A stretch of DNA of 64,000 nucleotides from Podarcis liolepis (taxonomy: Eukaryota), in assembly GCA_965112155.1 (NCBI GenBank), contig OZ218098.1. The stretch is one strand, 5' to 3'. The translations under genes and the position numbers were made by a program. Every line of letters begins with the position of its first letter. The first letter of the stretch is position 1. The notes under the pieces are model-generated. The model ran no database searches and was not told where the DNA came from. It saw nothing but the letters and a program-made list of their open reading frames with translations. Of this stretch, positions 1,583 to 63,446 are shown in pieces.

Positions 1583-1930
<348 letters not shown>

Positions 1931-2470: not shown

Positions 2471-2638
<168 letters not shown>

Positions 2639-4000: not shown

Positions 4001-4348
<348 letters not shown>

Positions 4349-5495: not shown

Positions 5496-5516
5496 GTTTT
5501 AAATGAAAACCTAGGT

Positions 5517-5582
5517 CAGCTTTCCCCAACCTGGAGCCCTCCAGATGTTTTGGACTACAACTCCCATTATCTGCAACCAGCA
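5517..5582. mobile_element. Half copy of the palindromic hAT MITE
   Basis: gccctccagatgttttggactacaactccca, as in the other copies. Confidence 0.6.
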
Positions 5583-5682
5583 TCGCCATGTGCTTCCTCT
5601 CCCTACTGGGCAGCACATTTTCCAAGTCTACAATCACTTTACTGCATTTTGACTAGTCTCCAGGTGCTGCTTCTCAACTTAA

Positions 5683-5895
<213 letters not shown>

Positions 5896-7075
5896 TAGTA
5901 GTGCCTGTAACTTCAGAGAGTTTCTCCATAGAAGCGAATGGAAACCAAGGCTCAGATTCTCCTTGTGAAACCACAACTCAAGTAAAAGTTTTTTAAAATG
6001 TGGCAGAGTCCGTTAACATTAAAGCGTTTGGGGACTCAAAGGAAATGCTAACACAAACGTTTAAAAACCTTATCTCTTTGATTTTCAAACCCTTCTCAGA
6101 TTTAATAGAAATGGCCACATTAACCTAATGAGCCTCTGTGAGAGTAGCTAATGGTTGTGGGGTTGTTTGTTTGTTAAACTTGATTACATGCCACTTCCTA
6201 GCAAAGCTCTTGTATGTTATCCACCCCTTAGAAAATGTACAATGATAACTCATTGCAGTACAAATATTCTACATGTGTAAGCTCACAGGTCAGGTATCGC
6301 TGTCAGTAAGCCTCTTGTTCAGGCCACACTGTCTGTGCTTCACGTTCTTCCTTCTGGATTGTTCTTAAGGTTTTTGCCTCAAAAAGACCAAGGCTAACCT
6401 TGCATGGAACAATCTTCAGCTCAAGCCACTGATTCCAGGCAAAATACTGTTATGTCAGCAACAGCACAAAGGAAGACATCTGGCTGCACGGAATGGCTGT
6501 AAAAAATGTAGTCACCTCATGCGCTAATAGTGTGTAGCTTTTAGGCGTGCTCTGTCAAGTCCTCTATCTCACTCGCATTTTAATGTAGCTCATATTCACT
6601 ATGGGAGTTGTTTTTGTTTGTTTTTTACAATTTAGAAAATACAAAGGCAAGTTAATGTTGCGTCATATCTCTGGGTAAACGTCTAAGTGAAAGACAAAGG
6701 TCTAGTTTTCAGTGCAGGGAGCATCAAGCAGGAGACTTGGTCCAAGTTCTGTTGCAAGGATAAACTTTTGGACTAAAAATGGCTGCAGAGTTGGGGCCAC
6801 TCTAAACTCGCATGTTCTTCTAAATCCAAGGCTCCTCTAAGCGCAAAGATGCTTCAGCAACAGGATATTCCAAATGTGTCCAATGCTTCTCTGCAGTCCA
6901 GGTGGCTCACTAAATGTTTTGCTTCTAAACTTGTTGAAGAAAATGTAATTGTTTCTAATGAAAAGCAGTCTTCAAAGCAAACATTTGTCCCTGGCATGGT
7001 CATGTTTTGTGAGAAAGAAGTGCCAAAAGAAAAAAAGAAAAGGCAGCATTAGCACAATACGAAATGTGAACACAG

Positions 7076-7284
7076 TATCTAACCTTGTGCACTTTTTATT
7101 TCTTCCCCTGTTTTATTTCCTGCATGCCATTCTCCCCCCCCCCCAATCTCTCTCCACCTGCTGCATGGTGCACCTCCTCCTCCTCCTTCTCTCCTTGCCC
7201 CTTTCTTGTTCTCCTTCTCTTCTTTGTCTTATACCACCACCCCACTGGCACTGCATGCCCTGCTGGCTGGCGCACTGCCTAACC
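7076..7284 (+). promoter_or_regulatory. AG-exclusion zone and distant branch point of the NM exon
   Basis: No AG from 7076 to 7284; ATCTAAC with branch A at about 7082; pyrimidine tract; three TGCATG motifs. Confidence 0.75.
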
Positions 7285-7286
7285 AG

Positions 7287-7367
7287 GACCACTCCGGCAC
7301 ACTTGGCCCCGAGGAATTCAAAGCCTGCCTCATCAGCTTGGGTTACGATATTGGAAACGATGCACAG
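7287..7367 (+). CDS. ACTN1: ACTN1 alternative NM exon (Ca2+-sensitive EF-hand; [27 protein letters not shown])
   Basis: aaccag| acceptor, CAG|gtactg donor, 81 nt; matches the known non-muscle exon. Confidence 0.96.
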
Positions 7368-7405
7368 GTACTGAATGCTAGCAAGGAACTCAGGCAAATA
7401 TCAAA

Positions 7406-7894
7406 CCCTAAGGGAATAACATATTTCTTCCTTCTCTTCTTTTTTGTTTTAATCCGTCTTGTCAATGTTCTTATATTTTATTGTGCATATTTCTGCATAC
7501 TGTTGTATGTTCTGTCATAATTCCATTCTTTTCTTTATGCATTGTCAAATCAATTTTTCTCTTCTTGGTTACACATTCCATTTGCTTGATTCCCTAAAAC
7601 TCTTCTTGCCTTCCTTTCTCTTCTCCATTTTTTAAAAAATTATCTTCCTATTGGTACCTTTTTCTTCTTGTTGTTGATCCTTAAACTTTCATCTGCTCCT
7701 TCATTTTCAATGGAATGAATCCATCTCTTTGTTTTCTTCAAATTATTTTCATATTTTCTTTTGTTGTTCAATATATCTCATCTTCCATTTTTCCTTCATG
7801 CAAATCCATTCTTTTAACACCTTCCGTGAGTTCATCTCTACTTTCTATTCCTCTCTTTTCCCTTTCATTCTTCCATCCCTTTATGACTGTGTAG
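7406..7894 (+). promoter_or_regulatory. Long polypyrimidine/AG-exclusion zone and distant branch region of the SM exon
   Basis: Only one AG (GAG 7828-7830) between 7413 and 7892; many TCTT (PTB-type) motifs; branch candidates CCCTAAG/GAATAAC at 7406-7420. Confidence 0.75.
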
Positions 7895-7960
7895 AAGAAG
7901 ACTGGCATGATGGATGCTGAAGATTTCCGCACCTGCCTTATCTCCATTGGTTACAATATG
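7895..7960 (+). CDS. ACTN1: ACTN1 alternative SM exon (Ca2+-insensitive; KKTGMMDAEDFRTCLISIGYNM)
   Basis: gtgtag| acceptor after a very long pyrimidine tract, ATG|gtaatg donor, 66 nt; homologous to the NM exon and matches the known smooth-muscle exon. Confidence 0.94.
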
Positions 7961-10072
7961 GTAATGTAGAAGCACCTGCCACTTATATTCACAATGGTAT
8001 ATTTGACCCTTAAACGAGAAAAGGGCATACTGCTAGTGAACCCAGGTAAAGCTTTGTCAGTCCCGTGACTTGTGAATAAAATCTATGGCATCAGTGGCAT
8101 ATTTATTTACAAACTGGATTGACTTCATACTTTATTTTTGGAAGAAGAATCAGAATATAATCCAAACTGATTCCTGGTTGACCTCTGAATAAGTAGAACA
8201 AAACAATGTCCAAGCCTTGTTCTCCCATGGCCATTTTGCTTTGTATCTGGATTATAATTATGCATTTGTTGCTAATTCATTGTGAGCAGCCCACACAACA
8301 ACCCTTCACACTTGTCCTTCTGCTGTAAAAATAGTCCATTTTCCCACATTTAAACTGCGAGAGTTGGTTTATCAAAAAATGATTTTTTCTTCTTCATTAT
8401 GTACATCCATTGGTATGGAAGAAATTCAATGATCAGGGCTAGCATTTTGGCTTGCCAGACAGAAGAGTCTCCCCCCACCCTCCTCTCCCTGCATGCAATT
8501 GCAGAGGTTCTCTCAACCCCTGCCCCCAGAGCCAATTTGGGGCGGGGGGAGAAAAGGCAGAGAAAGCCCTATGACACATGTGAAAGTCCTTGCTCAGGGC
8601 TGCTACTTGACAGGATTCATTAGTTGAATCCTGTTTTAAGGGGATTTTTTATTCAAACATTTTCGAAGCTCCCCTTTGGCCAAAAATGGTATTTTGTGTC
8701 GGTCTCACAAATCCATAAAAACAACTGGATTTATTCGCAATAAAAACAAACGGCAAAACCAGCAATATATCAACCAACAGATGAAAACCATTTAACCATG
8801 CAGTGTGGGATGCAGCTGCACAAGAGTCTTGGGCACCTTTTCTGTTAAATACTCTGTGCATATTTTCTGTGACTTCATTGTCGATGAGCAACACAGCTCT
8901 CTCTAGGTACGTCTTTGCCATTTTGTGAACAGTTCATGTTTTCACAGTGAAAGGCACACCATCTTTACTCAGAAGAAACTCCTACGGTAGTTAGCGGTGT
9001 TTATTCCAAGGAAAGTGTACACAGAACTGCAGTCCCACAGGGCAACTGTATACTCACATTTTTCTGGAACTGGAGCTATGCTGGTAGAAGTCGCTGGAAG
9101 GGAAATTAGTTATAGCCATCAATTGAAGGGGTGTAGGATATGGTGACGGTCTGTGCCTTCCCATACTGCCTATATTCCACCCATAAGTTCCAGTGGCCCT
9201 GTGGCAGCTAAAATTAGTAGTTCTAAGAATGCAATGCTATTTTCCAAAGAAGTGTATTTTTCAAAGTTATCCATTCTTTAGATCAACAGAGACAGGATGC
9301 CTAATACTATAATCTCATATCTGGCAGTACTACTAATTTTAGCTGTCACAAGGCCACTGAGTTTATCTTCATCAGATTCTGTGATCTCAAATCTTTGGTC
9401 TGGAGCTTGCCCCATCCATGTAAGTTGCTGCAACTGAATTCCATGAATTTTGCTACCACACATGTTACACTGCTCATGTGCATAGCCCATTTGCATAGGC
9501 TAGAAAAGAGGAGGGGGAATTCAGCAATAACATGCTAATTGGCCCCTAGGCTTATTCTTGCCTCAAAATTTATAAAGAGGGAAAAGGAAGTTGCTAGTGA
9601 ACATGTTACAGTTCTCAAGCACCCAGTTCTAAGATGTGAAATGTGGTGAATCTTAATCTCCAGTGAGATCAGCTTTTGTTAACCATGTTTCCTAGCCATG
9701 AAACTGTCAAGGGTACTTTTATTGTGTTTCCCTTCCTATAAAGAGGGTGTTTCTACACAGCAGCTTCTTGTGGACTTGGTGCCATGCATTGCCCACACTC
9801 AACAGCAGCAGCATCACAATAATATGGCATTTGGGTGGTGTTTGGTTGGAGCTTGAGGAATGTCTCTACCTGAAGCAGCTACGCCATTGGCTTCCATTGG
9901 TTGCTGTCTTATCAGACCTGTGATAAGGGGTAGCAGCCCCATTCTTTGGGTGTCAGTGCTGAGAATACTACTTGGTGCCAAACATTTATGAGCTTGTCTT
10001 CCTTATAACTACAAATGCAGTCAAACTACTTCAATTAATTCTTCATGTGCTACATCCTCGATGCCTCTGGAA

Positions 10073-10211
10073 CAGCCTTCCCGAACTTAGTGCCCTCCAG
10101 ATGGGTTGGACTACAACTCCCATCAGGCCCAACCAGAGCAGCAATTGTTAAAGAAAATGGGGGTTGTAGTCCAAAACATCACTGGGGGGGTGGCCAGTTT
10201 GCAAAAGGCTA
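10073..10211. mobile_element. Palindromic hAT MITE copy
   Basis: cagccttccc...aaaggcta termini; ggactacaactccca / ggggttgtagtcc arms. Confidence 0.7.
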
Positions 10212-10267
10212 TGGTGTGTTTCCATAACAAATGCCTATTTCATCCTTTCCTGCCCCCAGTAGATTGA

Positions 10268-10510
<243 letters not shown>

Positions 10511-12912: not shown

Positions 12913-13604
12913 ACTTTTTGAAATTGCTGTGTTTTTTAGGGAAAAATAATGTACACAGCTCATGTTTTCATATTTAATTAAAATTGCAATATGCCTACTT
13001 TGTGTTGTTGCTGAAAGTTGTCTGGTTTCCAAACATGGCGCTTGAGAGTTGGCATCTTTGATATTGCTTGTCACAGACCATATTAAAAAGAAAACTTATT
13101 GTGATAACAAATCTAGACTTCATTCTTTTGTCTAGTTAACTTGTTTCTCTATAACCAGAAAGGCTTTCCAACACTATTCAGAATGCATTGGTCGCTTGGA
13201 GGGTTTTTTGTATATTATTCTGATGTTCATGTTTTTACCTGTTTTCTTAAATGCAAGACACCAAAGTGCTTTCCCCTCCTCCACTCTGCTTTGGAATTGT
13301 ATTGATGTTTACGTGGCTGGTATTACTTCTTCAAATGGAGATAATCTTAAGATAACGAAAGATAAACTTGGACCAAACATGAAGTATGCAAATTGCTGGA
13401 ACTTGCAGCTTTTTTCCAGCAAAGAAATAATTAGCAGTCAATTTTCCTGTTTTAAAGAAGGTTTTTAAGTGACTGACAACAGTCTTATACATGTCTTACT
13501 CAGAAGTCCATGGAGTTCAATGGGACTTCCAGCTAAGTGGGTATAGGACTGCAGTCTTACAGCATGTTCCTATGCAAGTTTACTCAACGTTAAGCCACAC
13601 TGTA

Positions 13605-13836
13605 CAGTCATACCTTGGGTTGCGAACGCTACAGGTTGTGCGTTTTCAGGTTGTGGACCGCTCCAAACCCAGAAGTACCGGAACGGATAACTTCCGGGTT
13701 TCGGTGCTCACGCATGTGCAGAAGCACTGAATCACGTGATACGTGTGCGCATACGCGGCGCTGCAGGTTGCGAACGTGCCTCCCGCATGAATCACAACCC
13801 GAGGCATGACTGTATTCACAACCCGAGGTATGAATG
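13605..13836. mobile_element. Tc1/pogo-like MITE with duplicated right TIR
   Basis: TA|cagtcataccttgggttg...caacccgaggcatgactg|TA, then a second tcacaacccgaggtatgaatg|TA. Confidence 0.75.
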
Positions 13837-15910
13837 TATTTAGTGTATCTTGCTCTTAGGTAAATGTGCATAGGATTGCAGCCTTAATTTTATAAATACA
13901 CTCATCTTATTTGATGAGCCACTGCATTATTTCCAATCCTAGGCATTGGAAGATATGAAATCCACATCTTCCCCCGCCCCCAATGTACAATTGGCTTTAA
14001 AGCAATTGTTTTCGAAACCAATAAATTTTGTGTGTTTAGTTTGTCTTGGGATGTTCTTCCAGCTTTTGTGTATGTTTTTGTTCTCGTATCCACATCTCTG
14101 TAGGTATATCAACATATTCTTAAACACAGGGATGAGGGGGAAAGGGAAGCTTTGAAGGACAGTGAATAGAAACCTGAAGATTTTACAAGAGGAAGTACCA
14201 CTGTGAAAAGCTGGCAGCACTGTGCTGAAGTGTCTGTTTAAAGACACACATTCTCTCTCATCTTTGTTAGGAACAAATGTTTTTCTCTATTGCCAGTTTT
14301 TCCCCAAAGGTATCTGAGCCTGTGTAAATGATCGGGATTCTTGCTGCAGTACTGTAATTTAATTGTTGTTCCAAGAACAAGATCCTTATTGAGCAATAAT
14401 CTGCAAATTCACATGGGACACCTATATTTGTCTGTGGTTATCCAAGTAGCACGAAGGCTGGTTAATAAGAACTTTGCTTCAGAGTACCCTCACTTTTAAA
14501 TTTTGCTGTGATGGTATCAGTTTATTATTTAACTGGAAGGTCATTACAATACAGTATTGTATACAAATACAGCAGCAGCAATAAAATTAAAATATTTTGC
14601 TTCTAGCAGGCCTTTTATGCATGTTTTAAAACATCTTTGAGAAATTAGCTTCTTGACAATTCACTACCTTTCTGCACGTACCCACTTCAGCTGCTTTACT
14701 TTCATACTATATGTATCTCAGGTGAACAAAATGATTTCTACTCCGTTCTCTCATTGGCATTTGGTCTGCAGCCTATAAGGTCGAATATAAATTTCCCCTA
14801 AATTTTCCACCCAGGTATGTATATGTGCATACAGTATATACCCACAAGTCTCAGGGCAGTTAAAGATGCAGAAACACTCCTCTTTTTCACCTGTCCATTA
14901 TGAAATCTAAGCATCCAAAAGGCCCTTTGGAGGGAAATATATATTCAGTGCTGCAGCTCCAGTGGCACAATAGATGTGCGCAAAACAAAGCTTCCTCTTC
15001 CTCTCCTGCCCACCACCCCGTGTTCATCTGGAGCAGATTGGGGATGGGGGAATGAGACGGTATGGCATTCCCTAAGGCTGAGCATCAGAAGAGGAGGAAA
15101 CTGGGAGTATCATCTGATAAACCTCAGCTGCAGAGAAAGGCTGGTGGATAAAAGGAGTAGCCAGAACTGGTTTGAGGCCTATTAATGTGGGAGGGGCAGA
15201 AGCTAAGATGTTGCTGATAGGGCATTCTAGGAGCTATGGGACAGGATGGGGGGTAGCAGCAGCTTGTGGTCCTGCTGGGTGACCAGGTAGCTGAATAGTA
15301 CAGACCTGTCTGCTAGAACTAACAGTGGAAGAACCAGAAGGATGTTAGCTGAGCTGTTTCTACTGAGCATGGGGGTGGGCACTGTGGCATGCCATATGCT
15401 GCCATGCATTTTTACCCATCTTCTGAGAAGATGAGCGCAGGGATGCTAACATCCCACTACTATTTTGAAAGGTGAGTTTGGTGAGACTCCATAGTTGTTG
15501 TTGTTATTAATTATCAGTCATAAAATTTATATGTCATCCTCCACCCAAAGATCACAGGGATGTTTACAGTATAAAAATACAAAATACATATCCTAATAAC
15601 AAAAAATACATACACACACACACACACACACGTTCTCTAAGCAGACAAACTTGCAGGCCCAGAGCAAAGCCTAAGCTCTTCTCTACTCCCACCATCTTGC
15701 CCCTCAGGAGGCAGAGGACCCTGTTGCACCTTTGCTGACAGGTTGAATGGGAGGCTGAGGATACAATATTTCCCACCATGTACAGGTAATCTTACTGGAT
15801 TAGGCAGTATCAGTCAAAGGGGTCTCTTGGACGGAGGGCAGCAGTAGCCACTATTAAACAGTGTCCCCAAGTATGTTGGTGTTACCAGTTGGGCAGAATT
15901 TTGCTAACCT

Positions 15911-16587: not shown

Positions 16588-18289
16588 ATCTCTGAGGCCA
16601 GAGAACCGCACACATCCTTTCTTAAGATCCCAGCACATTGGTGCTCTCTGCTCACCTGTAGCCTGTCATTTGGTGGCATGGAAGTAAAGAAGCAAGCTTC
16701 CAAGTAAGCCCTTAATATTATGACTAGGTGAAAATGTGTAACAGATTTCTGTGGTATTTGTCATGTACACCGAGAAATGTTTGGAGTCCACCCAGTTCCA
16801 CACCGGCTACTCTATCAGGGCAACAGCTCCCCAGGGTTTCAGACAGGCACCTTCCCAGACCTGCCTGGAGATTGGGAACTTCAGCATAGCAAGCAGCACT
16901 GTGGTCATTCCCCAATGCCTATAAAAACAAGGCCACCTTTGTCAGTCACGGAGTACTTGGCTGCACACGTTGGTGAAAAGAAAAGGAGCCATTTGTATGC
17001 AGGGAATCAACAAGAGATTCTTATCACAGCCAATTAATATAAACTTTGGCAAAGAAGAAGCCACTTAATTGTGGTTGTGCTATCACATGCTGCATTAGTA
17101 CAGTCTGTGACTGGCAGGACCTATGTGGGCTGTACATATTTTATGGGCTAATAGCCGTAAATAAATAAATGAAATGAAATATGTGGGCCAAGTGAATGTT
17201 ACACCACACACCAGTTATTACATTTATTGTCCATTTGGCACAGTAGTGATATGAAAAGTCTCTGCCCATCCTCAGCTTACGCAATGGTTTGCAATGGGTT
17301 GGGAAAAACCAATATGGTGGCATCCTTTTATGGAGCAACCTGCTATGTATGTGGCAACCAGTTATGTTTTGGAAAGCCAAGGTTTAGGTTTATTAACTTT
17401 GTATATTGCTCCCCACTAAAAAAACCCCCGAAGTGATTTACAGTAAAAAAAAATGCAATGAAGAAATTTTAAAAATGGTATTTAAAAACTGATGTAACAA
17501 TATCATACAATATCACTGACGTTGCCGAAATGCCTGGGAAAACAAAACTGTCTATGCCTCGTGCCAAAACTGGGGAAACCATTCCTCAGAGGCCACGTAC
17601 CTCAGAAAGATCTGAAGTAGTCTTGTTAAAACAAAGCAAAAAAATCTTCTGACCTATTTTGATAAGGAAATGCTGTGTTGCATATTTAGCTTTTAGTGAT
17701 GTGGAAATGTTGAAAAGCCTGTGTGCCAACTGTGTTCATTAATATGTAATGAGGCACAACATCTTGGTTCTACTCCCCCCACCCTGTAATCTTTCTTGCA
17801 CAACATTTAGCCCAGATCAAAATATCAGACAGGTGACAATTCTCGTGCATTTGCCTTCCTGCGCCACCCTCAAAGCATTAATGCAAAATAGAGAGAAAGG
17901 CATTTTATAATCATTTGAATGAAATTGCTTTGTTTTGATTTAGGCTCTTGGTCTGTGAGCATCTGCAAGGGGGGCAGTCACTCCCTCTTCCCTGGGATGA
18001 ACCACAGTCACTAGATTCCCAGCTTTTTTCTTTTTTAAAAGGGTATAGTTATATAGAGCTATATAGAATCCCATCCCCCACCCCTTCCCCAAGAGCTAGG
18101 GGCAAGTAACAATATATTTATTATTCTGCCATGCCTCTGGTAATTATATAGCTACAGTATTATAAACAAAAGCCCTTTGTATCACTTCAGGAAGAAAAGA
18201 ATTCAAAGTAAGCATTTTTTTTATGGCTTGAAAGCACCCAACTGCAGCGAAGGATAAGGACCTTAGCTTGCATACGTAAACACTGTGCA

Positions 18290-19160
18290 CAAGGAGAGCC
18301 CGGCAGCTGCTCTGGATGAATTAGCCTGGCAGAGAAGCATGGTTTGTATCCCCGCCCGCACTGACGTCCCGAAATGGCGCAATCGCCATTCGCGAGAGCC
18401 GATTGCCTAAGCTCTCTCCCTCGGAAGGACAACACCTCCCGGCCTGCCTCTCTACCAACCCCCGCTCTCCACGAGGCCCCTTCGCAACGGCAGCCGCCTA
18501 CAACTCCCAAGCGGGGCAGCGGACCCTCCATTCGCGTCCAGCAAAGGCGTTCAAACCGCGGCCTCTGGCGCGTTGCCTTCTGGGAGTCGCAGTCCGCAAG
18601 CCGGTTGGAGAGAAAGGGGGCTTTGCGCAGCCGCAGCCGCCTTCTCCGCGGCTCCTCCTCAGGGAAGTAGCGCCGCCATTTTCTCTGGCGGACTGAAGCG
18701 AGCGTCGCGTCCGCACACGGGAGGTAAGCGAGTTTAGTTGGACGCTGGCACCGCCGGCGAGTGCGCGGTTTTCCTCACCCGGGAGGGGGGCCGAGCCGGA
18801 GCAGGGGCGGGTGGGAGAGCGAGGCGGCCCGTGGCGTCGGGGGATAAGAGCCAGCGGGCTCCGTTTTATCTGCTGTGGTAAACGGAGCGGAGCCAGGCTG
18901 CGAGGCCGAAGCTCCGCCTTGCCTGGGCCCTGCGCGGCGCCCGTTCCCTGCATTGGGTCCCGGGTGAGGACTCCCTCTCCCCACATCCCCCCCCCAGGCG
19001 CCCCCTCGTCTTCGTCTCCACTTCTCTCGAGCCTCTGCCGTTAACACTCTCGTTCTTTGCCCTTCCCTTTTCCCTCCCTGCCTTCTGATCCCGAACCGCT
19101 TTTGCATCCCTCCAGATCGGGCCTTGCAAGCGCATCTCAGCAGCCGAACTTTTCATCCAT
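18290..19160. promoter_or_regulatory. CpG-island promoter of the SRSF5-like gene
   Basis: Abrupt GC/CpG enrichment; CRE-like TGACGT at 18362, YY1 cores at 18373-18390 and 18672-18682, ZNF143-type motifs at 18498-18509 and 18581-18595. Confidence 0.9.
18670..18723 (+). other. SRSF5A: Non-coding exon 1 of the SRSF5-like gene (start approximate)
   Basis: YY1 motif GCCGCCATTTT followed by a strong donor GAG|GTAAGC after 18723, inside the CpG island. Confidence 0.7.
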
Positions 19161-19769
19161 TTCCACTCAAAAGGTAATGATTGAGACGGACGATGAAGGA
19201 GCAGATTTGTTTTTGTTTTTAACCCTCCTCACGATCTCTCTCTCTGGACATTTATATTTTTGTGTGCACGCGAAAATGTCTTTATTATTCCGCCCCCCCG
19301 CCCCTGTTTTTTTTGGTAGGTATGAAAAGGAGGCTGAACGGCCTCTGATGCAGAAACATCATGAATCCTAAACTTGTTATCTGCTAAGGTGTTGCCTTAT
19401 CTACTACCAGCTTCTTTTGGTGGAGCGTAGTGGCTTTTGAGTTACACAAGAGCTCAGCTTGAAGGGTTTCTATGCTCCAACACCAGTGGGAGTTGGCGCC
19501 AAGTGAGAGATGGTTTTAATTATTTATTTCTATGCAGTGGATGTTTGACTACGTTTTGAGAGTGTGCATTGGGTACATTTGTGATAAAACTATACTCTAA
19601 AGTTGTTTGCATCTATATTGGCGTGATATAGTGTTTTAAGAAGTATGTTTTAAACACTGTCCTCAGTTGTCTCTTCTGTCCAACATCTGTGGGACTGAAT
19701 TTTAGTATTGATATAATAAAATACCTAACGTGAACACAAAAACTTAATTTCTTTGCAGCTTAGGCTAAA

Positions 19770-19895: not shown

Positions 19896-22071
19896 GTAGG
19901 TATATGCGTATTTAAATATTTTCCTCCCAATCTAGATGACTGTAGGCAGTTACATTGTAACATACAAATCACAGGAAATCTGATTAGGCAAAATATCAGA
20001 AATGTTAAACTTCCATCTTCTCTTTAACCTTTTAGATCTTTCTGTAAATGGCTCTTAATATGTGCAAACTTCCTCTTTGAAATTGCTAATATGGTAAAAT
20101 GGAAGGCTGCTTTTTAGGTAAGAATGAAATAAATTAGCTTTGCAATTAATCATAGCCGTAGGTTGTATATGCCATGGTTCCCTCACCTGAGCCTCTCCCT
20201 CCAACCCAACATTTCTCTCTGCTGCCATTACATTTTCCTTCCTCCCCCAAACTCGCAAGAAAAATAAAAATATGGAACTTAAACTTAAGGTAAATACTCA
20301 GGATGGTTGGTTAACACTCAAAGTTTTAAGTTGGGGAGGGAAGGGGAAAACTGACAGCTTTCTTAATAGAGGTGAACTAGCCAGGTTTGTGTGGTTCTCT
20401 TTTTGTACTGGAATTCTCTGTTACATGTACAAAACAAGAGAGCATACTCTGAACACAAATTACTACATCTTGAGGGATTCTTAGTATTCAGAAATTCCAG
20501 CAACCATTAGGTGATCCTTCTTTCAATGAGAAAGAAGCCAGCCAGTTCTGCTTAGGTGGGAAGCACAACAGGTTTGGTGGGACTTGTGTCGTCTTTCTGA
20601 CCCATGCTATCAAGCAAGAGGAGAGAGGAACACAGAAGGAAAAGCAGCAGTCTTCTTTTCTGTATTTGCCTATCCAAGCAAACTCAGTGGGGCTGTGGGG
20701 ACTTGCATTTTCTCTTCTCTTGCTAGGCAAGCTAGGCAACTTGCCCCTTTGGATCTGCCTAGCTGGGGTAAAGGATACTTGGATTCTTTCTTCCTCTCTC
20801 TGAAATAGACAGATAGGGAACAAAAGTCCACCCAACTAGTGCACATCCTACCAAACAGAGGATGATAAAGTTCCATTTTGGGGGCAGCATGTGTGACTTT
20901 ATTCCCCCACTCAACAAGCAGGAGACAGGGAACCTAGCTTGCAGCTGTTTTTCCTATGCTGGAGGGGAGAGAAGTAGTTCCATGTGCCACCTCCAAAATG
21001 ATAGGTAAACTGAGCAGAAATCTTTTCTGCAAGGCAGGAAGTTGAATCCCACAGATGGGGTCTTCAGAGCTCATGAACAGTGTTAGACACTGAGATGTGA
21101 AAGCTAGGAGTTAAATGGCACCTTAAGCCTAAGGTTATGGGCGCCACAACAGAATGTCTAGATAGGTGTTTTTTATACAAAGCTGGAAATTAATGAACTG
21201 CAGCAAAAAAATCATATATTCATTTTACATATGGTTTCATCCTCATCTGAAGACTGCAAAAAACAAAGCTATACTTCCTGCCCGCCCTCCTAATATTCTT
21301 ATTTGGTTCACTCCAGTCTTCAGAGAGTGGCTGGAAGTGGGGAGACAGAAAAAGGGCTTTCTTTCTTTCCACTTTGCAGACAAGCCCTGGATTCTTCCTA
21401 CACCCCCTTTCCTTCATATAAATAAATCTTTTTGGCTCCACAATTAGCACACATTACAGGCCTATACAACCGATGGCAGAGACACCCACCTTGAGTGTCC
21501 AGTTCACAAACCTAAGACTTCATTGTCTTTCAATGATCCCACTCCAAAATTGGTTTCGATTTTAAGCATCACTGTGAGAGTGAGGTAGATAACACTTTAA
21601 AATGCACTACTTAAACCAAACCTATTTAAATCAATCTGAGGCTATAAAGTGCAAAACTGCCTTTCTGTAAGGCCAGCTGAGGTGGAACCTCTCAGCTTTC
21701 CTGTACTGATCTCTTGGAAGTCCAGCAGGGAGGATTTTCTCCTCCCATGCCCTCAGTGCCAGCAGCGGCAGTTTTAATCTTAAATATTAGGTGCAGCACT
21801 GCACCCAGATCTCAGAAACTGCTCATACTAATGAAATTCCCTGTCGCAAAACGTGCCTAGAACAACGGGAGTTTTGAACGCTGCTTATGGAGGTTGCATA
21901 CGTAGGCTGCGTTCACCCATCACAATAAGCAAGGATTGATGGATTATAATGGTATACTGTGAATGCACTGTGCTGGTACCTGCAGCCTGATGTCTCCCAC
22001 TTCACTTATCTCTTGACATGATAGAGAAAGGGAAAACCAGGAAGCTGCAGTTGTTGTGACTTCAGATATGG

Positions 22072-22167
22072 GATCCTGATTTGTTGTTCCCAAACAAGCC
22101 AGCATCACTGCAAGCCTTTATTGGCTTGCAGATCCTGACTTGTTTGGGAACTACAAACCAAGGTCTC
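22072..22167. repeat. Inverted repeat from a degenerate MITE in SRSF5-like intron 2
   Basis: ttcccaaacaag...ctgcaagcc / ggcttgcag...cttgtttgggaa. Confidence 0.55.
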
Positions 22168-23513
22168 TAGTTAGATATCACAGAAAGCCAAGCCTATCTA
22201 CAGCTTCATGGGTTACTTCTCCACTCACATCAGGAAAAGCAGTCAGGCTTAATGTACCACCACATTGCTTGCTCACCGTGAATCATAAGCAAATCTGGCT
22301 TCTTGTGGGAACACTGACATGGTTGTCTTGCCTGGAGGCAATATTTACTTGCCCCAGGTGAGTGGTCATTTTTCTTTTGACTTACACCATCTTCATTACT
22401 AGATTTGCCCATATTTTCTTTTGACCATAAGTCTAAATCACAGCAGCAAACAGCAGAACTAATGCTTTATTCAACCTGCATGCCATTATGCAGAATGCAC
22501 AGTTCTCCAAAGCTTGCCAATTAACTTCAGGCATAGGTGGATGAAGTGGGAAGCATAGGAAAATATCAGGTGTTTTTGTAGTCCCAGACCACTCTGTTAG
22601 GCAGCTGTAGCATATTGTGTGAGGCTGTTTGGTCTGAAGACTGATAGGAATTCATCACTAAACCACTTCTCATCCTGTGTGATTTGACAGCATGGCATGA
22701 CAGCATAGGCGTGCATGCTGCTGGACACAGTCAACCTGTATCATGAGTCCATTCTCATAATAGCACATCATTTCACCTGTATTTGGCAGATTCCTATATA
22801 ATGAACTTGCATTGTACAATGGCATGAGATGTTACAGTAGAGGCAAGCATTCTACTGTATTAGGTGTTGGTGGTCTTCTATTTTATGTTTTATTGTTTTT
22901 CTTATTTAAAATATTTCTACCCTTCCCTATATTTAAATATTTCTTTTAGACTACAGAGCAGACACATGTAGGCTAGCTAAACTAATGTTCCACAAATGCC
23001 TAAGCAAACAGATGTTTTAGAAATTTAATGGTTAAGTAGGTAAGTTTTAATTTGTTATTGAAATGAGTCAGTAGCTTCTGTACCTCAGGGGGGAGGGCAT
23101 TCCTGACAAGACCCATTGCCATGTTGCCACAGAAAAGTATCTCCTGCCAGAGGAACACGTAATATGAACTCCACAGAACTTCAAGCATGGGCAGGCTGGT
23201 TTAGGGAGAGATGACCCTCCTTTAATTAGTTTCCAAGTTAGGGTTTACAATTATTGTTAACTTTCTCACATATTCAGTACTCTTGTGCTGATATATACAA
23301 GTTGGGTCTAATACATCTCTAGAACCACCTGAGCATGTATAGCCTAGCCCACTTACTGAGATCATCTGGAAGAGCATTGTTAATTGCCCTCTGTGTTAGA
23401 GTCATGACTGTAATAAGCTGGAAAAAGGAATGGAAAAAAATCCCCTATTAGGGCAATAAGATTTCACTCTTAAAGAACTGAATACATGATTCATTCCTTC
23501 TTTTCCTTCTTAG

Positions 23514-33639: not shown

Positions 33640-34390
33640 GTATGTCACCATATATGAAGATCTGATGGACTTGACAAGAAACATGGCAATCAGGGCAGGG
33701 GGTGGGAAGCAAGATGTTAGGAAAATGTTGCTGCCCCAAACCTTCTCAAGGTACAATTGAACTGGATCTCTGCCCAAGTATTTCCATGATGGGAACCACA
33801 GGTAGTGACAAAAAATGCAGGGTGACAACACTTGGTATAAACAAATAATTTCTAAATTTTATAACTTTATGGAGATAGCCAGAGTGATCCCCTCCCCAGG
33901 TTTGCTAGACTCCCACTCCCATAAGCCCCAGCCAGCATGGTCAATTGGCAGGAAAGGGAGATGGAGGACACCACCTTGGCGACCCCAGTGTATGTAGTTA
34001 GAGAAATTAGAATTAGAGAAAATGGAGTACAGGCTGAGGGATCTGTATTATGCCTGCTTTCTACACCAAGCAAGCTTGTTTACTGTACAGTGGTACTGAG
34101 ATAGGGATCAAAAAAGAGCCTTAAAATTCTCAAGATTTTTTGTAGACATTGAAGTATGAGAGGGAGTCAGGGTGAAAAAGATACTTTGGGCTGCAACATT
34201 GCCTGTTGGATGAACAGAAGTCAAAGGTTCCATGTTTCTCTAAAGTTAGAGGAGAAATACCACTATAGATGGCATTTTAAAAGACGACCCAGTTGTGTAG
34301 TAGGAATATGCAAGACTGGGTGCAAAAAAATTATTTATGAATATGAATACTGGATATAGACTCTCATAAGATCTGTTCAATCTTTATCAG

Positions 34391-38796: not shown

Positions 38797-39932
38797 TTCT
38801 ACGGCAAGCCATCTCAATGTTAGAGTTTCATAATGATCTCTGATGGCAGGAGCAGTGGGATTCTCTAAACTTTTCTATTATCAACATAACACTTTAACCA
38901 CATTTAAGTCCTGCCCTTCTTATAAGGAATTCAAGGTGCCCTGCTTTTCAGACTGGGTTCCTTCCTATGTTTATGGCCATGCTGGTCAACCAGAAGTTAT
39001 GAAGATGTGGAATGTATATAATCTGTTGATCTAGTAATCCCATCCTTGGCTTTGCAGCTACATTAAAGCACTGCTACATTAGGTATGGAAGTACCCCTGA
39101 GGCCAGAAAGTTCTCTGCAGAACAGAGTTCAACTGGGGGAACTGGTTACTCTTAGTCAAGGCCATCCAGACATTGCTTTCTGAGGCAATAAACTTACCAC
39201 AATATTGTTATTCCTCATAATAATACCGTAATAATATTTTTAAAATTTATCTAGCTGGGTTTCCCCAGCCACTCTAGGCGGCTTACAACATATATAAAAA
39301 CACAACAAAACATCAAACATTAAAAAAAAAATATTCTATACAAGCCACAAACAAACCAATAAATCAATATAAATCAACAACAACAACAATAATCTTACAC
39401 TAACCTGGCACTCTCTAAATGAGTGTGTGTGTTTGTGTGTATTTATAAATTTATTACTTGTCTCTCACCAAAAGTCCCAGGGTAGATTACAACAATATAC
39501 AATAAACACAAGTAAAAGAGTTCTAAACAAAAATAAAACAGTATAGATTAAACGGTACAGATTTTGGACTTCAACACCCCATTCGTCCCAGGAAACATGG
39601 TTATAGAACTGAGGGTCCTTGGAGATTGGAGGAGACTGCTTGACCTCATCAATTTAATGTGACAAATATTTCTTTCGGATGTGCCCTCATCCAACCTGTA
39701 TATGCCACACCACATAAGCTTCTAAGTTTGCAAGCCTCTCACTCTCTTTCTGTGATGTTGAAATCAAGGAAAGAAAGAGTAATCATGTGAAACTGATTAG
39801 ACAAGGTAAGCCTATTTGATATTATCATTTCAAAATGTGTTAAGCAGCTCTTAGGATTCCCTTTTGATAGCCTGGGATGAGCTGAGTACAGCTGGGGTTA
39901 GATAACAAAATAGCCAAGCCCATAGCTTAAAC

Positions 39933-40047
39933 CAGGGGTAGCCAATATGAAGCCCTTCTGATGTTCATATAATCCACAAGTTGGAAGGGAGGCTGATGGG
40001 AGTTGTAGTCCAACAACATTTGGAGGACATAATGTTGGCTACTCCTG
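39933..40047. mobile_element. Palindromic hAT MITE copy
   Basis: TIR caggggtagccaa / ttggctactcctg; perfect 8-bp TSD gcttaaac. Confidence 0.85.
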
Positions 40048-44694: not shown

Positions 44695-46483
44695 ATATGT
44701 TTCTATTCAGAAGTTTGAATTCAGGAGTAAAAAAATATAAATGAGTAGGTGTATGATTCCCATGTCTAGGATTGCCTTACAATATTATTTTCTAAGGGTC
44801 CGAGGAAAAATCTAGTTGGTCAGAATCTAAGAGGAGGCTCCCTCTGTTTCTTTGTTTTTTTAAAACTAGATTTTGAACTAGTGGAGCATGTCTCACTCAC
44901 TCACTCACTCACATTTTGCTTCATTCCCTCCACCTCCCCATTTTTCTAATAGGCTATTCATCTCCTCTTTTTTAAAAATAGAAAATGAGGTTTTAAAATG
45001 TTGGACATCATGGTATATTTCCACATATTTCCTCCCCCACATGCCATGTTTATTATGTCTCAGTAGAAATGGCGATAGGCCTTCCATGAATAATGGCTTT
45101 TTACAGCCAAGGCCCTTCATGAATGACAACCCAGACATTTGTTATTCTGAGTAGCTTGTACGTGCAGTGCTAAATGTAGTAACTTTGATACAAGTCTGGG
45201 TGAAGGATTTATGGTTTGTTTTCTGTTTTAATTAAAAGAGCACTGAAGCATCCTGCTAGAGTTAAGAGGGTGATACGGACTTTGGATGGAGATCTAAAGG
45301 AAAAAGTATGTCATTTCTGTTTCTTGAATGTGCCCCTTTAATTGTAATCGGCCACAAGCCAGGTAACCTATTAAACCCTTTGCCCCTTGCACTGCAAGAG
45401 GATAAGAGCATGTAAAATCCAGTAACTCTTTAACTAGGAGACCAAGCATTACTTCAGTTCAACAACAAATACTCTTTTGTTTCTTTGGCTCAAAGTTGCC
45501 GACCAGAGTATCTGCTTCACAGCCCACAGTACCTGAAAGAGCCTTAGCTCTGCCAAAGAGAGCCCGAGATACAACCTACCTCTTCCCCTTGCTTGATGAC
45601 CCTTCCTCTGGAGATCCTTGTACTCAACTTGTATTTCTTACTTGTCCCTCACAAGACAAAATACAAACAATATTGAGTTTGTCATCTCCAGATTTTGGAG
45701 TGTTTTCAGCAACTCTTGTGGCTTAGCTAACATAACCCTGTGGGGTGCCTGGAATATAGCCCTTTTTGGCCCTTGAGTCTGAAGTGTTTGGTCAGTGGAG
45801 ATTAAAAATTTGGATGAATTCTGTCAGAAAAGGAAATGAGAGTGGAAATAGCCACAGTTTGCATGTCCAGTTTGCATGTATTTGTAACGTCAAATACAAG
45901 AGGTATTCACTATCTTTTTTTTTTAGTCCACAAATGCCTCCTAAGCTGATGCTCTAAACCACTACACTGATAAACTAGCCTGCTTCCCCCCATTCTTTAA
46001 CTTTGCACACGCACCCTGGAAAAAGTGCCGTGGACAGCCATGTATGCTGCAACTCCAGATACAAGAAAGTGACTGAGACTGAAGCTTACAGGTCATCCTG
46101 GCCTAGGGCTGTGAAGCCAGAGCCAGATATGAGAAAATAAGGGTGGAATTGGGTTCAGGTTTGGGTTAAGCTCTATTTAACTAGATGTGACTTAGTTTTG
46201 CGCAGAAATGTATAGAACTGTGCTGCAAATCACTCATTTGCATATCACTCAAGAATTATACGCTTGTCTCCTCTTTTAAGATACCCATCTTAGGTAAGAG
46301 GAACAACTTTCTTCCCCCTTTTCTCCTCTCTGTTTAGAAAGAACTCTAGTTTGTTGTTGTTGTGGTTGTTCAGCTTGTTGGCTTTCCCCTTTCTTATTCC
46401 AGGAATCATTGCAGGGATTGGGGGAAGATAAGCTAGAGGCATTGCACACTGCTTTAGACCACTCTCTCTCCTCGCCTTTCCCA

Positions 46484-46803
46484 TTGAGCCTCTTGGGCTT
46501 GCCAATCAGAAGGTCAGTGGTTCGAATCCCCGCAATGGGGTGAGCTCCCGTTGCTCTGTTCCCAGCTTCTGCCAACCTAGCAGTTCGAAATCACACCAGT
46601 GCAAGTAGATAAATAGGTGGGAAGGTAAACAGCGCTTCCGTGCGCTCTGGCTTCTGTCACGGTATTCCGGTGGCCACATGACTCTGAAAGCTGTCTGCGG
46701 GCAAACGCCGGCTCCCTCGGCCTGAAAGCGAGATGAGCGCTGCAACCCCATAGTCGCCTTTGACTGGACTTAACCATCCAGGAGTCCTTTATCTTTTTAC
46801 CTT
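46484..46803 (+). mobile_element. Sauria SINE (5'-truncated)
   Basis: Aligns with the 15911 copy; B box ggttcgaatcc; ctttatctttttacctt tail. Confidence 0.87.
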
Positions 46804-46867: not shown

Positions 46868-46993
46868 CTGGCTAGCCAACGTGGTAGCTTCTAGTTGTTG
46901 CTGGACTCCACATCCCATCAGCCCAAGCCATCCGGGCCAGTAGTCAGGAAGGATAGGAGTTGTAGTCCAACAACATCTGGAGGGCATAGCTGT
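46868..46993. mobile_element. Palindromic hAT MITE copy (degenerate)
   Basis: ggactccacatcccatcag...ggagttgtagtccaacaacatctggagggc. Confidence 0.65.
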
Positions 46994-48289
46994 CAATGTT
47001 TCCCTTTTTTAAAGGGAAATTCCCTTATTGAGAATAGGATTCCTCACAAGAAAAGGGAAAAGTTGACAGCTATGCTGGAGGGCACCACGGTGGCTTGTCC
47101 CTGTTGTAATATGTTCCATATGTTCTCCAGGTGGCTTACAAAACAGTAAAATATATGCATAAAAGAAAATTAACATAGCATTCCAAATCAAAATAAAAGT
47201 GTCAGTAATAATCATGACTGTCAAAGATTATTATTTTTTAACATTTAAGGTCAGGGGTTTTTTTAAACAGGCAGGCATAGCAACCAGGAGGCAAGCTGAA
47301 CTGGGAACACAATAGGCTGGGGATGGATGGAAGTTCTTTTTGCACCAAAATACCAACAAAAATATCCTCCTAAGCCTGCTATTTGCACTGGGTATAAAGG
47401 TCTCATGGATGCCAATTTCTCCTCATCTCTGCTTAGAACAGTGGTTTGACCAAAGCTGCCTAATGTCTTTATGACTTGAAGTTAGATTTGAACTAGGGAC
47501 TTCCCAGTTGACACTCAAAGCCACTATACAACATCATCTCTCAAACACTGACTAGATTATCTCACTGATAACAAGGAGAGTTTTGATTTTAGCCTGCATA
47601 TATCAACCAAACACATGCATGTTAAAAGTATTTGCCTACGACTATAGAAACACATGGGTCTCATATTTGAAACAGAACGACTATGGATTTCCAGAGGTGT
47701 TTTCAGAGTATGTAAAACTTCCCCACATGTTGGAAATCTGCTTACAGCAGCAAATACATGAGAACCTAACGATGAAAGAGAATGGCCTCTTAAAATGGAA
47801 CTGTTTCACTCACTGTGAGTCAAAATGAGAAAGCACACAGAGCTGTGGAAAGTGAAGAAGGTGTTCAGTAAAGTTATTTGAATCATTAAAAAAAGGACTT
47901 AGTGTGTGAAAAATTAAAAACAAAACAAAACACTAGACCTAAACAAGACATGAGATGGCTGCTGTGTTAAGTTTCTTGAGAACAAGATCTGAATAAGGGA
48001 ATATCAGGGTAGGTCCCTCTTCTGTTCATCTATGCTTGCAAGTTATTCAGAAGTCTTCGTTGGGTAACCTCACCTGCTTACTTACATCTTTACAAAACAT
48101 TTGCCTCCAGCAAGGTCCAGTTTGTATGGGTGCTATTTGGTTAGCTGAGAGCTCACCATAAGTTCAAATATATATAGCAATATATAGTCAGGAGACTATG
48201 GAAACTTCAGGGCAGAATTGTCTCTTTTCCATTCTCATCTCATTGGCATCCAATAGCAACCGAGGTAGAATCTTCCACACATAGGAATA

Positions 48290-51008: not shown

Positions 51009-51386
51009 GTAAAGGTAAAGGACCCCCAGACGGTTAAGTCCAGTCAAAGACGACTATGGGGTGCAGCAATCATCTTGCTTCAGGCCGAGGGAGATGGCGT
51101 TTGTTCACAGACAGCTTTCCGAGTCATGTGGCCAGCATGACTAAACTGCTTCTGGCGCAACGGAACACCATGACGAGTGCCAGAGTGCACGGAAACGCCA
51201 TTTACCTTCCCGCCGCAGCGGTACCTATTTATCTACTTGCACTGACATGCTTTCGAACTGCAAGGTTGGCAGGAGCAGGGACTGAGCAACGGGAGCTCAC
51301 CCTGCCGTGTGGATTCGAACCGCTGACCTTCCAATCAGCAAGCCCAAGAAGCTCAGTGGTTTAGACCACAGCGCCACACACTCCCC
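51009..51386 (-). mobile_element. Sauria SINE (near full length)
   Basis: Reverse complement of the 15911 family; (aaaggt)n tail at the left end. Confidence 0.88.
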
Positions 51387-54700: not shown

Positions 54701-56255
54701 TGGATTCTACACTCTGCTGCAGGCTATCAGCAGAGCATAATGCCAGGGCGTTTGCCAGCTTCCATGAGTTGTTTAGCCTAACCTACATACGCCTGCACAA
54801 AACGGTGCATTTCTGGTACACTGCCAATGTTTTGTTCTGGGCCGTGGGTATTAATGCCTTGCGTACATAACTACTATTTTACTCTCCGATGAAAACAAAC
54901 CAAGCCAAGGTTATTGTCAGACACCTTTTTCTCATATAGCCACCCAACCCTTATTACAATAATAACAATAATTATTATTACATACTCCCTTGTTATTATG
55001 CACTGGTACAGGTAGCTTTTTTCCCACACATTAGTAGCTTTGCAGAGCTCCCATGAGTCACTTAGGAGTCTTTCTCAATGTCCCAGGACTAATTGTATGT
55101 GTTCTCTTGAAAGTTGCAGCTACTTTAAAGTAAGAGGTGCAGATAACACATCTCTTACATCATATGTCTCCATCATTTTAATGTGGCTTGTGTCTGGCGT
55201 AGTCACCCACTTGTGCCATGGGCTACACAAACAGAATAAACATGGGCTATGTATCGGGGCAACCCACCCGCAGCCAAATATTAAAATGGAGATGGAGATC
55301 TTGGCTTTTTTCCAGTGTTTGCAGACATTTTCACCCCGAGTAAATTGAATGGGCATGAAGCAACTTGTTTGTGGGCATTGGCCATGCCGTGTGTCTATTC
55401 AGTAATGGCATTGCACAAATGTGGGTACAGAATGGAGCATCCTGAGAATTACGGCTTTTGTTATTAACGAAAATTTAGAAGGGAGTCTCAAGGATCCTTA
55501 AAGCTGCAAAAACAGGTTTCAGTGCATGTGAGCAACACATAGTGAAACATCAGAGATCATGATAGGTGAATTGTCCTCATAGCACATTGAAAGATACCAT
55601 TAAGCCACTCTCCATCCATTCATTCATTCATGCAGGGAAGAAAATGACTGCACAGACTCTATTAAGCCATAAGCATTTCCTTAATCTCTCTCTCTTAAAA
55701 TACTGTACCAAGGTTTCATCTTGAGAAGAGGGCATGCATACAATAAATAAATTATGAAGGAGTAGTACAAACCCAAGTTCTATGCATCTGCAAGTAGTTC
55801 TCTTTCTAAACAGAGTAAATTTGGTTTAATTTGGACAGGGTTTCATAAGGCTCCTCTCTGATCTCACAGCTTCCTCACTGCCAAATGTCAAAATCCTGCT
55901 CCAAATCCTGGAGGCAGTTCTAGACCTAGTAAAATATATATAGTTTGAAAATATTTAAACATTGGCAAAACTGACAAGTTCTTTCACTTGCCTTCTTGGA
56001 AATTGCTGCAGCGTTCTTGCTGATGTTTTAAAGAACGCCTCTTGCTGGCAAGGAGATCTAGTGTGGAAAATTTCGGCACAAGCAGGATACAATTTTGTCA
56101 GGATGGAATGTCCTATGACACCATAAAGCCACCGCTGCATTATAGGTTTATGAATATAGGCTCAAATTTATATCCTGCCTCTTCTCCAAGGATCTCAGGT
56201 CAGCATATTTGTAATAATCCTATTTCATCCTCACGACGACTTCATCCTTTTTATA

Positions 56256-56514
56256 CCGTATTTTTCGCTCTATAAGACGCACCAGACCACAAGACGCACC
56301 TAGTTTTTGGAGGAGGAAAACAAGGGAAAAAATATTCTGAATCTCAGAAGCCAGAACAGCAAGAGGGATCGCTGTGCAGTGAAAGCAGCAATCCCTCTTG
56401 CTGTTCTGGCTTCTGGGGTAGCTGCGCAGCCTGCATTCGCTCCATAAGACGCACACACATTTCCCCTTACTTTTTAGGAAGGAAAAAGTGAGTCTTATAG
56501 AGCAAAAAATACGG
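56256..56514. mobile_element. Tc2/pogo-like MITE with internal hairpin
   Basis: TA|ccgtatttttcgctctataagac...gtcttatagagcaaaaaatacgg|TA. Confidence 0.88.
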
Positions 56515-56817
56515 TAATTTTTGCTCAGTTGTATTTCATGGAGTAATGAGTCATAAAGTGATAAATGAGTGGAAGAGCTCAAAATTACTACCACTATCTT
56601 ACTGACTTTTCTAACACAACTGCACAGCTTGATTTTACCAGACATTGTTAGCTTGCTTGGAGCTTTGCAGTGAATTTTGGGCCTGAGTATGATAAACTTT
56701 CTGGGTTTGGGCAAAGCATTTTTAATGTTGTTTCCAATATTTCTAGTCACCCTCAGAACTCAAACCCAGCTCTGGTTCTTCTGTCACAAAGCACCAATCT
56801 AAACCCTCCCTTTATAC

Positions 56818-61985: not shown

Positions 61986-62265
61986 TTTAGGCTCCCTGTG
62001 CTAAGTAGCTCTGTTACCCCAACCTACATTATGGAATATGGTTGTATGGCCTGGTCTGGAGAAGGGGATCTGTTTTTTTGTGTGGCCTGTTTTTTGGTGA
62101 CCGTACAGTACTATGCTGTTGGATTGCTAGGTTGAGTAATGAGGGACTGATTTAAAATGTTATATATTTATTGTATTGCTGTGCTTTATGTCAACCATCT
62201 TGGGGAGAATTTCATTCCTGAGAAGCAATATAGAAAATAATTAAATAAAAGTATATGAGCTAGGG

Positions 62266-62402
62266 CAGGCATAGGCAAACTCGGCCCTCCAGATGTTTTT
62301 GAGACTACAGTTCCCATCACCCCTGGCCACTGGTCCTGTTAGTTAGGGATGATGGGAGTTGTAGTCCCAAAACATCTGGAGAGCCGAGTTTGCCTATGCC
62401 TG
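62266..62402. mobile_element. Intact palindromic hAT MITE, 137 bp
   Basis: Long TIR caggcataggcaaactcggc / gccgagtttgcctatgcctg; perfect 8-bp TSD agctaggg. Confidence 0.92.
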
Positions 62403-63182
62403 AGCTAGGGCCTTACAGCTTCTGAGAAACTGTTTGACCCCCTTATAAGCAGCTGGCTCAAGAGCACAACTTGTTATGAAGTTATGTAATCTTATCTCGT
62501 TCCTCTTGTATTACTCATAGGTATAAAGTCAAGAGATTACAGCTCATAATGCTTGTCTCGTGCTGTCTAAGGATTCCTGCAAAGTAATAGTATTGCCTAC
62601 TCAGGCTTCCTGCTAACAATATGTACAGGTACACACTCCCTCCTATAAATGTTTGCACACTAAGCTGCCAATAATCTTTCCTCCACAGCCCTCCTCCTTC
62701 AATACTTCTTTTCACGTCTACTAGCTTTACCTAACAGTGCATGTAAAAAAGTAATGAGTTCCAGTTTGACTCATGCTGGTAAATTCATACTGGTGTGACG
62801 CAACGGAAGTACAGCTAACATAAGAGGCAATGTTTGTTTTTCTTTAGGGCACATACTCTTTTGAAGGCGATTGGCCATCTTACAAAGATGATGGGCAGTG
62901 GCATGGAAAAAAGAGGGAACCTGATTGGCTAGGGATAAATGAAGCAATATTTACCTAACCCTGAAAAACAAAAAGGAAACAAGAGGGGACTTCCAGACCG
63001 TTGCTATTTTAAATCAACAGTGGGGTTCAGTTGCATACTGGGAAATTCAGGTTGTGCAACTGTAGTTGGTTGGGAGGTCTTCCAAAATAAACCCACTTGC
63101 CACAAAAATCAATTTTTTTGCAATAAGGAAAGTGAAGAGGGAATGCACTGGAAAGTGTGGGATAACGTTTCCTTGACACAAA

Positions 63183-63446
63183 AGATTTGTCCACACATCC
63201 TCTTGTCCCCTGCCTCGAAAGCAGGGGTCCAAGAGGTTTTCCACTTGTCCCATACTTTCAAGGCATGGGTCCGAGTGGTTTTTCATTCGTTCAACTGCTT
63301 TCCCCTGGGAAAACCTGCTGTTTACCACTGAATCGGAACAAACATCAATCTGCAGAAAAACTGTTTGACATTTGTTTCGATTCAGCAGTAAACAGTGGGC
63401 TTTTCCAGGGGAATGCAGTGGGACAAGCAGATGTGTAGACGAGCCC
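63183..63446. mobile_element. Harbinger-like MITE with a long internal inverted repeat
   Basis: gtccacacatc / gatgtgtagac termini; arms at about 63294-63348 and 63365-63419. Confidence 0.55.

Follow-up and report, generated by a model that had tools for sequence, protein, structure and literature searches.

A very abundant palindromic hAT-type MITE of a lizard genome carries THAP11/ZNF143-type sequence within a core shared by its subfamilies

The palindrome at 62266-62402 of the 64-kb window (the whole stretch of DNA that was analyzed) is a copy of a very abundant MITE family whose arms carry a THAP11/ZNF143-type motif, and this motif lies inside a core of about 37 bp that is common to subfamilies with different terminal repeats. 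Our preferred explanation, to which we assign a probability of roughly one half, is that the core persists because the element needs it to be copied, most simply as a subterminal region read by transposase, and that few copies are bound once they have inserted.

The element at 62266-62402 is intact, non-autonomous and 137 bp long; it starts with CAG, ends with CTG, is non-coding and contains 2 CpG. The initial annotation had called it a palindromic hAT MITE, and this assignment was corroborated by the identity between its arms (54 of 62 columns), by the RNA fold (z -16.8, equaled by none of 200 shuffles), and by the 8-bp target-site duplication (TSD) AGCTAGGG found on either side of it, at 62258-62265 and 62403-62410 (both +). 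The insertion at 62266 was confirmed in DNA runs X1 and X4 by contigs that enter the element from both flanks, and it occurs under both organism labels. Within the family, a perfect 8-bp TSD surrounds two of seven copies. Furthermore, the bases behind the right end of the MITE read GTCTAGAG or CTTTAGAG in all four runs, with 89-536 records per run. The target of Charlie-related Anolis hATs is given as NYYTARRN/NTCTAGAN in table 1 of PMC3014272; the flank consensus agrees with it, the TSD GCTTAAAC of another copy fits it, and AGCTAGGG departs by one mismatch. Measured against a TIR start of YARNG, the CAGGG of the copy at 39933 fits, while the CAGGC of the intact copy departs at the fifth base; the start of hAT-N5_AC is listed as CAGGS (PMC3014272). 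None of the 120 longest of the 169 frames of at least 75 aa in the 64-kb window matched a transposase family, and an Rfam scan of the window gave no matches. The element is a palindromic, non-coding and selfish MITE of hAT type, likely moved in trans by Charlie-type transposases.

Seven copies were found in the window by BLAST and nhmmer, starting at 915, 5518 (half a copy), 10073, 33875, 39933, 46868 and 62266, which corresponds to 7 per 64 kb or 109 per Mb. The full-length copy at 915-1051 is older, lies between exons of a spectrin-repeat gene and has no clean TSD; its right motif is exact and its left motif has one mismatch. At 5518-5590 (+), only a left arm is present, with an exact motif at 5554-5566, and the older copy at 10073-10213 keeps an exact left motif and a right one with one mismatch. 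The copy at 33875-33995, in the last intron of the SR-protein gene, is decayed, with two mismatches in the left motif and the right motif partly deleted. The copy at 39933-40047 retains the perfect 8-bp TSD GCTTAAAC and an exact right motif, the left one being deleted. Finally, the copy at 46868-47103 has one mismatch in each motif, and a palindromic element nested in it has shifted its right end. At least six copies had been claimed for the 64 kb; all six were recovered, together with the decayed seventh at about 33875-33995. One of them, placed near 46956, does exist, but its site at 46954-46966 carries one mismatch.

The left arms of the copies at 915, 33875 and 46868 share the same A>C motif change (ACTC for ACTA), a pattern that suggests an asymmetric subfamily that may have moved with one intact site. 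The element nested in the copy at 46868 sits in its right arm (46986-47073); it is a second, unrelated palindrome of 88 bp (fold z -6.8), surrounded by a short duplication of host-element bases. A strongly eroded stretch at 39562-39591 may be one more arm of the family (nhmmer E 0.16). The open frame across the copy at 915 had no atlas match at 0.9 or above, and none of seven candidates was retained in the longer-protein search, which is weak evidence. Three scans of viral contigs yielded 0, 0 and 0 further copies. Six metagenome-contig loci were rejected as family members, none of the six having the motif core or the MITE ends, as was one locus in a prokaryote genome, a non-palindromic chance match.

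Two DNA and two RNA runs were mapped on 62050-62620. In both DNA runs, the depth of the core was 2.3-3.6 x 10^5 times that of the flank, a ratio of summed contig depth, which is no copy number. Given this ratio, the two arms of each copy and the 109 copies per Mb, the genome likely holds about 10^5 copies. The description of the MITE as very abundant is thus sustained by the depth ratio and by the seven copies in 64 kb. Loose contig ends accumulate before 62345 and behind 62381, depth is greatest in the bin 62350-62369, and the loose-end consensuses reveal at least four different outer ends around one core. Therefore, what the subfamilies have in common, despite their distinct terminal repeats, is a core of some 37 bp at 62345-62381.

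In the intact copy, ACTACAGTTCCCA lies at 62304-62316 (+) and ACTACAACTCCCA at 62353-62365 (-), confirming the motif pair of the initial annotation. The window contains six exact occurrences of the 13-nt ACTACANNTCCCA, where 0.03 would be expected and none of 100 shuffles gives as many, and all six sites sit in copies of one repeat, the MITE. In both arms of the intact copy the exact 13-nt THAP11 motif forms part of a longer SBS2-like site, on the left at 62304-62328 (+), with 3 mismatches in 23, and on the right at 62341-62365 (-), with 2 in 23, the best SBS2 score of the window. Motifs were scored by printed IUPAC consensuses, and on this scale the five top SBS2 scores of the window are all MITE arms (2, 3, 3, 3 and 4 mismatches in 23), with 4 and 4 at the sites of the SR-gene promoter. 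No arm shuffle in 4000 reached 2 mismatches to SBS2 (the best had 4), and the analytic chance of such a match per arm is 1.6e-6 at 2 mismatches and 2.3e-5 at 3. It had been proposed that the MITE spreads THAP11/ZNF143-type sequence, and this holds, the 13-mer being exact in 6 of 13 arms and extending into SBS2.

The 13-mer is enough for a shift with the THAP11 DNA-binding domain but does not by itself bind ZNF143, and in cells THAP11 occupies SBS2 sites of 25 nt (PMC3627581). The published SBS consensus is YWCCCRNMATSCMYYRCR (PMC5006282), and the overlapping 18-nt SBS that ZNF143 needs has, in the best arms, 2-3 mismatches in 17 to the degenerate consensus, with a variable tail. The worry that TCCCATCA in the MITE abolishes the ZNF143 site seems less serious than it first looked, because YWCCCRNMATSCMYYRCR matches the arms with these 2-3 mismatches. 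Predicted human promoter sites with the same TCCCATCA start score 0.826-0.943 at a matrix cut-off of 0.82 (PMC3082894), and the activity of the BUB1B promoter was unchanged by deletion of ACTACAA (PMC1904299). The Ronin motif CTGGGARWTGTAGTY (PMC10329844) has no exact match in the window; five arms agree with it at 14 of 15 bases and the promoter sites at 13 of 15, the MITE having T where the motif has its final G. The prediction is that the factors can bind the MITE motif on naked DNA. Methylation should be unable to block it directly, since the element has only 2 CpG.

The motif is exact in 6 of the 13 arms, has one mismatch in 4 and two in 1, and was lost by deletion in 2. Across arms that are few and non-independent, that mix subfamily differences with later decay, and whose blocks were chosen after seeing the data, the 11 fixed motif bases have 6 mismatches in 121, against 20 in 132 for the adjoining outer 12-base block (Fisher p 0.012; 11 of 13 arms, the two arms with the motif lost by deletion being left out). 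In the same 11 arms, the SBS tail has 39 mismatches in 132 and the termini 86 in 195, and with all 13 arms the fixed bases and the outer block differ similarly (7/127 against 23/151; p 0.011). Additionally, the two free positions of the motif have 5 mismatches in 22, against 6 in 121 at the fixed ones (p 0.014). The earlier claim that the motif outlasts the rest of the arm is therefore borne out in a small sample. Among the 40 of 161 variant rows listed, none falls on a fixed motif base; 62358, a free position that varies in 18% of the depth in both DNA runs, is the only variant of the right-arm motif among those listed. The outer block at 62373-62381 is nearly as steady as the motif, with one variant among the rows listed. 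The low variation at fixed motif bases is the pattern that would be expected from a THAP11-like reader. The motif is mutated or deleted in 7 of 13 arms, and both motifs are exact in only one of seven copies; therefore, it is not protected after insertion.

Under our preferred explanation, one founder element would have carried a THAP11/ZNF143-type site, acquired by capture or chance. The ends would then have turned over among subfamilies, and the core, needed for the element's own copying, would have stayed, most simply as the subterminal region that a transposase reads. Inserted copies would decay and sit in closed, CpG-poor DNA, and only the minority landing in open chromatin would for this reason bind THAP11 or ZNF143, as some mammalian MLT1J copies do.

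A more ambitious explanation, possible but doubtful in our judgment, is that a host factor assists transposition. Either THAP11, which can bridge two sites as a dimer, or ZNF143 would bind the core, open or bend the 137-bp element, and help an active hAT transposase pair its ends. The constancy of the core while terminal repeats change, the concentration of variation at the free positions of the motif and the extension of the match into SBS2 are what such a cofactor would produce. Moreover, Ronin/THAP11 can bring its motifs together in vitro by looping the intervening DNA (PMC10329844), and Anolis orphan hAT families share only TIRs with autonomous elements (PMC3014272). However, the 35-36 nt between the sites are probably short for looping, and the broken left motif shared by three copies suggests that a subfamily moved with one site. 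The window also has 0 exact Ronin motifs, the MITE showing T for G; the SBS tail is variable (39/132); and the statistics come from 11 non-independent arms with blocks picked after seeing the data. We are equally hesitant about the broader form of this idea, in which a vertebrate hAT MITE superfamily would swap its transposase-specific ends and keep a core that recruits THAP11 (transposase-derived) or ZNF143 as a transposition cofactor, most such motifs in the genome being transposon-borne. The initial annotation had cited the kinship between THAP domains and transposase DNA-binding domains; this kinship concerns transposases of the P-element type and thus offers no explanation for a hAT element, since the hAT enzymes have BED fingers instead.

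It is also unlikely, in our view, that the motif is a chance look-alike, with a core that owes its conservation to nothing but descent and detection bias, and with neither factor binding appreciably even in vitro. Some of the observations fit such a coincidence: a 13-mer with p 2.5e-7 per site would be expected somewhere in a whole transposon library, copies are found via their best-kept part, the mid-arm depth peak is partly due to local-alignment edge effects, and the outer block at 62373-62381 likewise has just one listed variant. Against it, the match covers 25 nt and occurs in one of the most abundant short families, and human promoter sites starting ACTACA-N-CTCCCATCA, which are predicted sites, score 0.895 and 0.943 on the SBS matrix, above the cut-off of 0.82 (PMC3082894).

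The initial annotation had also seen in the MITE a mimic of an SR-gene promoter. The only CpG island of the window (18251-19250, +), identified by a CpG scan, is the inferred promoter and first exon of this SR-protein gene, with the RRM starting near 19770. The best solved-structure match of the RRM/RS gene downstream of the island is an SRSF6 variant (E 2.3e-13), and we take the gene to be SRSF5-like. SBS2-like sites in the island lie at 18429-18453 (+), 18497-18509 (+) and 18569-18593 (-), and presumed YY1-like and CRE-like cores are found near 18362-18389 and 18674. The promoter has been said to hold the same motif pair in the same orientation; the convergent orientation is indeed the same, but the pair is not, having one mismatch at 18497-18509 and two at 18581-18593, with 71 nt between the inverted sites, against 35-36 nt in the four MITE copies with two sites. 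The inverted pair of the MITE follows from its palindromic build, because any motif in an arm appears twice and inverted. None of 18 pairs of a promoter site and a MITE arm, anchored at the motif, extended beyond it more than the CpG-island background did, and BLAST of promoter against MITE gave 12 nt at E 0.96. With palindromy accounting for the pair, a different spacing, 0 of 18 anchored extensions and 0 of 7 copies CpG-rich, the claim of mimicry finds no support. The run index lists no RNA run for the promoter stretch, which speaks neither for nor against its use. The promoter was likewise rejected as a decayed MITE, on the same 12 nt at E 0.96, the same 0 of 18 extensions and the lack of a hairpin (z -0.82).

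The base composition around the copies differs from that of the promoter: CpG o/e is 0.11-0.31 at all seven copies, against 0.91 at the promoter. In two RNA runs, of unknown tissue and read to about 12% and 6%, no pile-ups of RNA starts or ends were found in the MITE, with the two directions similarly represented. Neither run has any RNA depth on either flank of the intact copy, and 5715 of 12.8 million RNA records (0.045%) and 1440 of 11.0 million (0.013%) touch the family, the two partly read runs being a weak test of promoter use. Wide use by the host, in which the copies would imitate the SR-gene promoter and either give rise to promoters and enhancers or titrate THAP11/ZNF143-HCF1 as decoys, is improbable. 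In its favor, MLT1J copies bearing SBS2 show an 88.9-fold enrichment in ZNF143 peaks and are bound by THAP11 (PMC3627581), a single SBS can drive bidirectional transcription in reporters (PMC3082894), MITE arms beat the promoter's own sites on consensus score, and the promoter-MITE local alignment, driven by the motif and a 7-nt match, was reached by only 24 of 1000 shuffles. Against it, there is neither homology nor a spacing match to the promoter, the motif is lost or mutated in 7 of 13 arms, RNA starts do not pile up, the two RNA percentages are small, and 0 of 7 copies lie in a CpG island.

Bulk RNA run X23 differs from the DNA at five positions that are rare in DNA (0.1-3.2%) and changed in the A-to-I direction. 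In the first-mate-plus reads, T>C is seen at 62272 (19% against 7%), 62298 (24% against 1%) and 62299 (32% against 2%), and in the first-mate-minus reads, A>G is seen at 62369 (28% against 4%) and 62372 (12% against 3%). Places with A>G/T>C stand to those with C>T/G>A as 43:23 in X23, against 14:17 and 13:16 in DNA (p 0.07-0.08). Against editing, RNA run X21 gives 31:34, with no direction bias, and changes that editing does not make are likewise elevated or confined to one side in RNA (C>T at 62393, 2% against 27%; A>C at 62279; G>C at 62383). In addition, the positions of the left arm are mirror images of those of the right, 62311 was excluded because it is a subfamily variant, and the signal at 62395 is weak. 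With DNA and RNA from different animals, strandedness assumed and a few highly expressed copies as a confounder, the hairpin RNA of the MITE is likely A-to-I edited, which makes the family a candidate Alu-like source of dsRNA in lizards.

Parallels for a self-folding, edited repeat exist in Xenopus tropicalis, where a palindromic Harbinger repeat is an ADAR target that is edited without a neighboring inverted copy (PMC5625713). That repeat differs from the MITE in superfamily and species, and the passages of the same paper on lizard editing name Penelope and SINEs, not a hAT MITE. As to build, the closest known system is hAT-N1_AC of Anolis carolinensis, with 135 bp, 57-bp inverted repeats, more than 1,000 copies, an 8-bp NYYTARRN duplication and CAG ends (PMC3014272). 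Its first 20 bases differ from every end found here, in a comparison that covered ends and build. The likeness to Anolis elements, with the stretches taken as Sauria SINE copies, points to a lizard genome. The Anolis orphan hAT-N families have no similarity to autonomous elements beyond the TIR, and the account of Anolis hATs in PMC3014272 names, in its passages on these families, no factor motif.

Mobile carriers of such motifs have been described in other hosts. MLT1J LTR elements carry the same 25-nt motif, are bound by ZNF143, THAP11 and ICN1 via SBS2, and have been proposed as the seed of SBS2 sites (PMC3627581). The two differ in that MLT1J, whose binding has been demonstrated, is an old retroelement of mammals, whereas the MITE is a DNA transposon with two inverted, putative sites and likely far more copies. 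Mouse B2 SINEs also bear abundant ZFP143 motifs, which were tested and found unbound, in contrast to the MITE match, a sequence-level one that includes the ACTACA half (PMC11687419). Plant MITEs amplify E2F, bZIP60, PIF3 and TCP motifs and are high-copy carriers too, for other factors and in plants (PMC5950925). MITEs mark open chromatin of liver in Xenopus, in an account whose relevant passages do not mention ZNF143, Staf or THAP (PMC12676858). Among the papers listed from the open-licence literature, none was found that links ZNF143/THAP11 to a lizard or frog MITE. The suggestion that the association is undescribed is thereby only half upheld: none was found for a lizard MITE, but the THAP11/ZNF143 motif on a mobile element has already been published for MLT1J (PMC3627581).

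If the preferred explanation is true, about 10^5 repeat copies would swamp ZNF143/THAP11 motif scans in squamates, and the genome would allow a natural test, on a large scale, of what makes a strong housekeeping motif attract its factors at promoters and not in repeats. If assisted transposition is true instead, a MITE would be using a core promoter factor to transpose, and this would account for the persistence of an orphan MITE through a succession of transposases.

The start of the window lies inside a gene with weak spectrin-repeat matches (Pfam E 0.001-0.002, below the curated cut-off), whose peptides presumably resemble alpha-actinin 1. The exons of this gene (1-10500) are on the same strand as the SR gene and stop some 8 kb before its promoter, and three MITE copies lie between them. 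Other inverted-repeat or palindromic elements, different in sequence, were observed at 385-507, 9191-9359, 13603-13838, 22055-22182, 56254-56516 and 63289-63424; those at 56254-56516 and 13603-13838 are flanked by TA and have what we take to be Tc1/mariner-like ends. Two stretches at 46276-46769 and 51038-51364 are similar to each other and presumably represent copies of a Sauria SINE.
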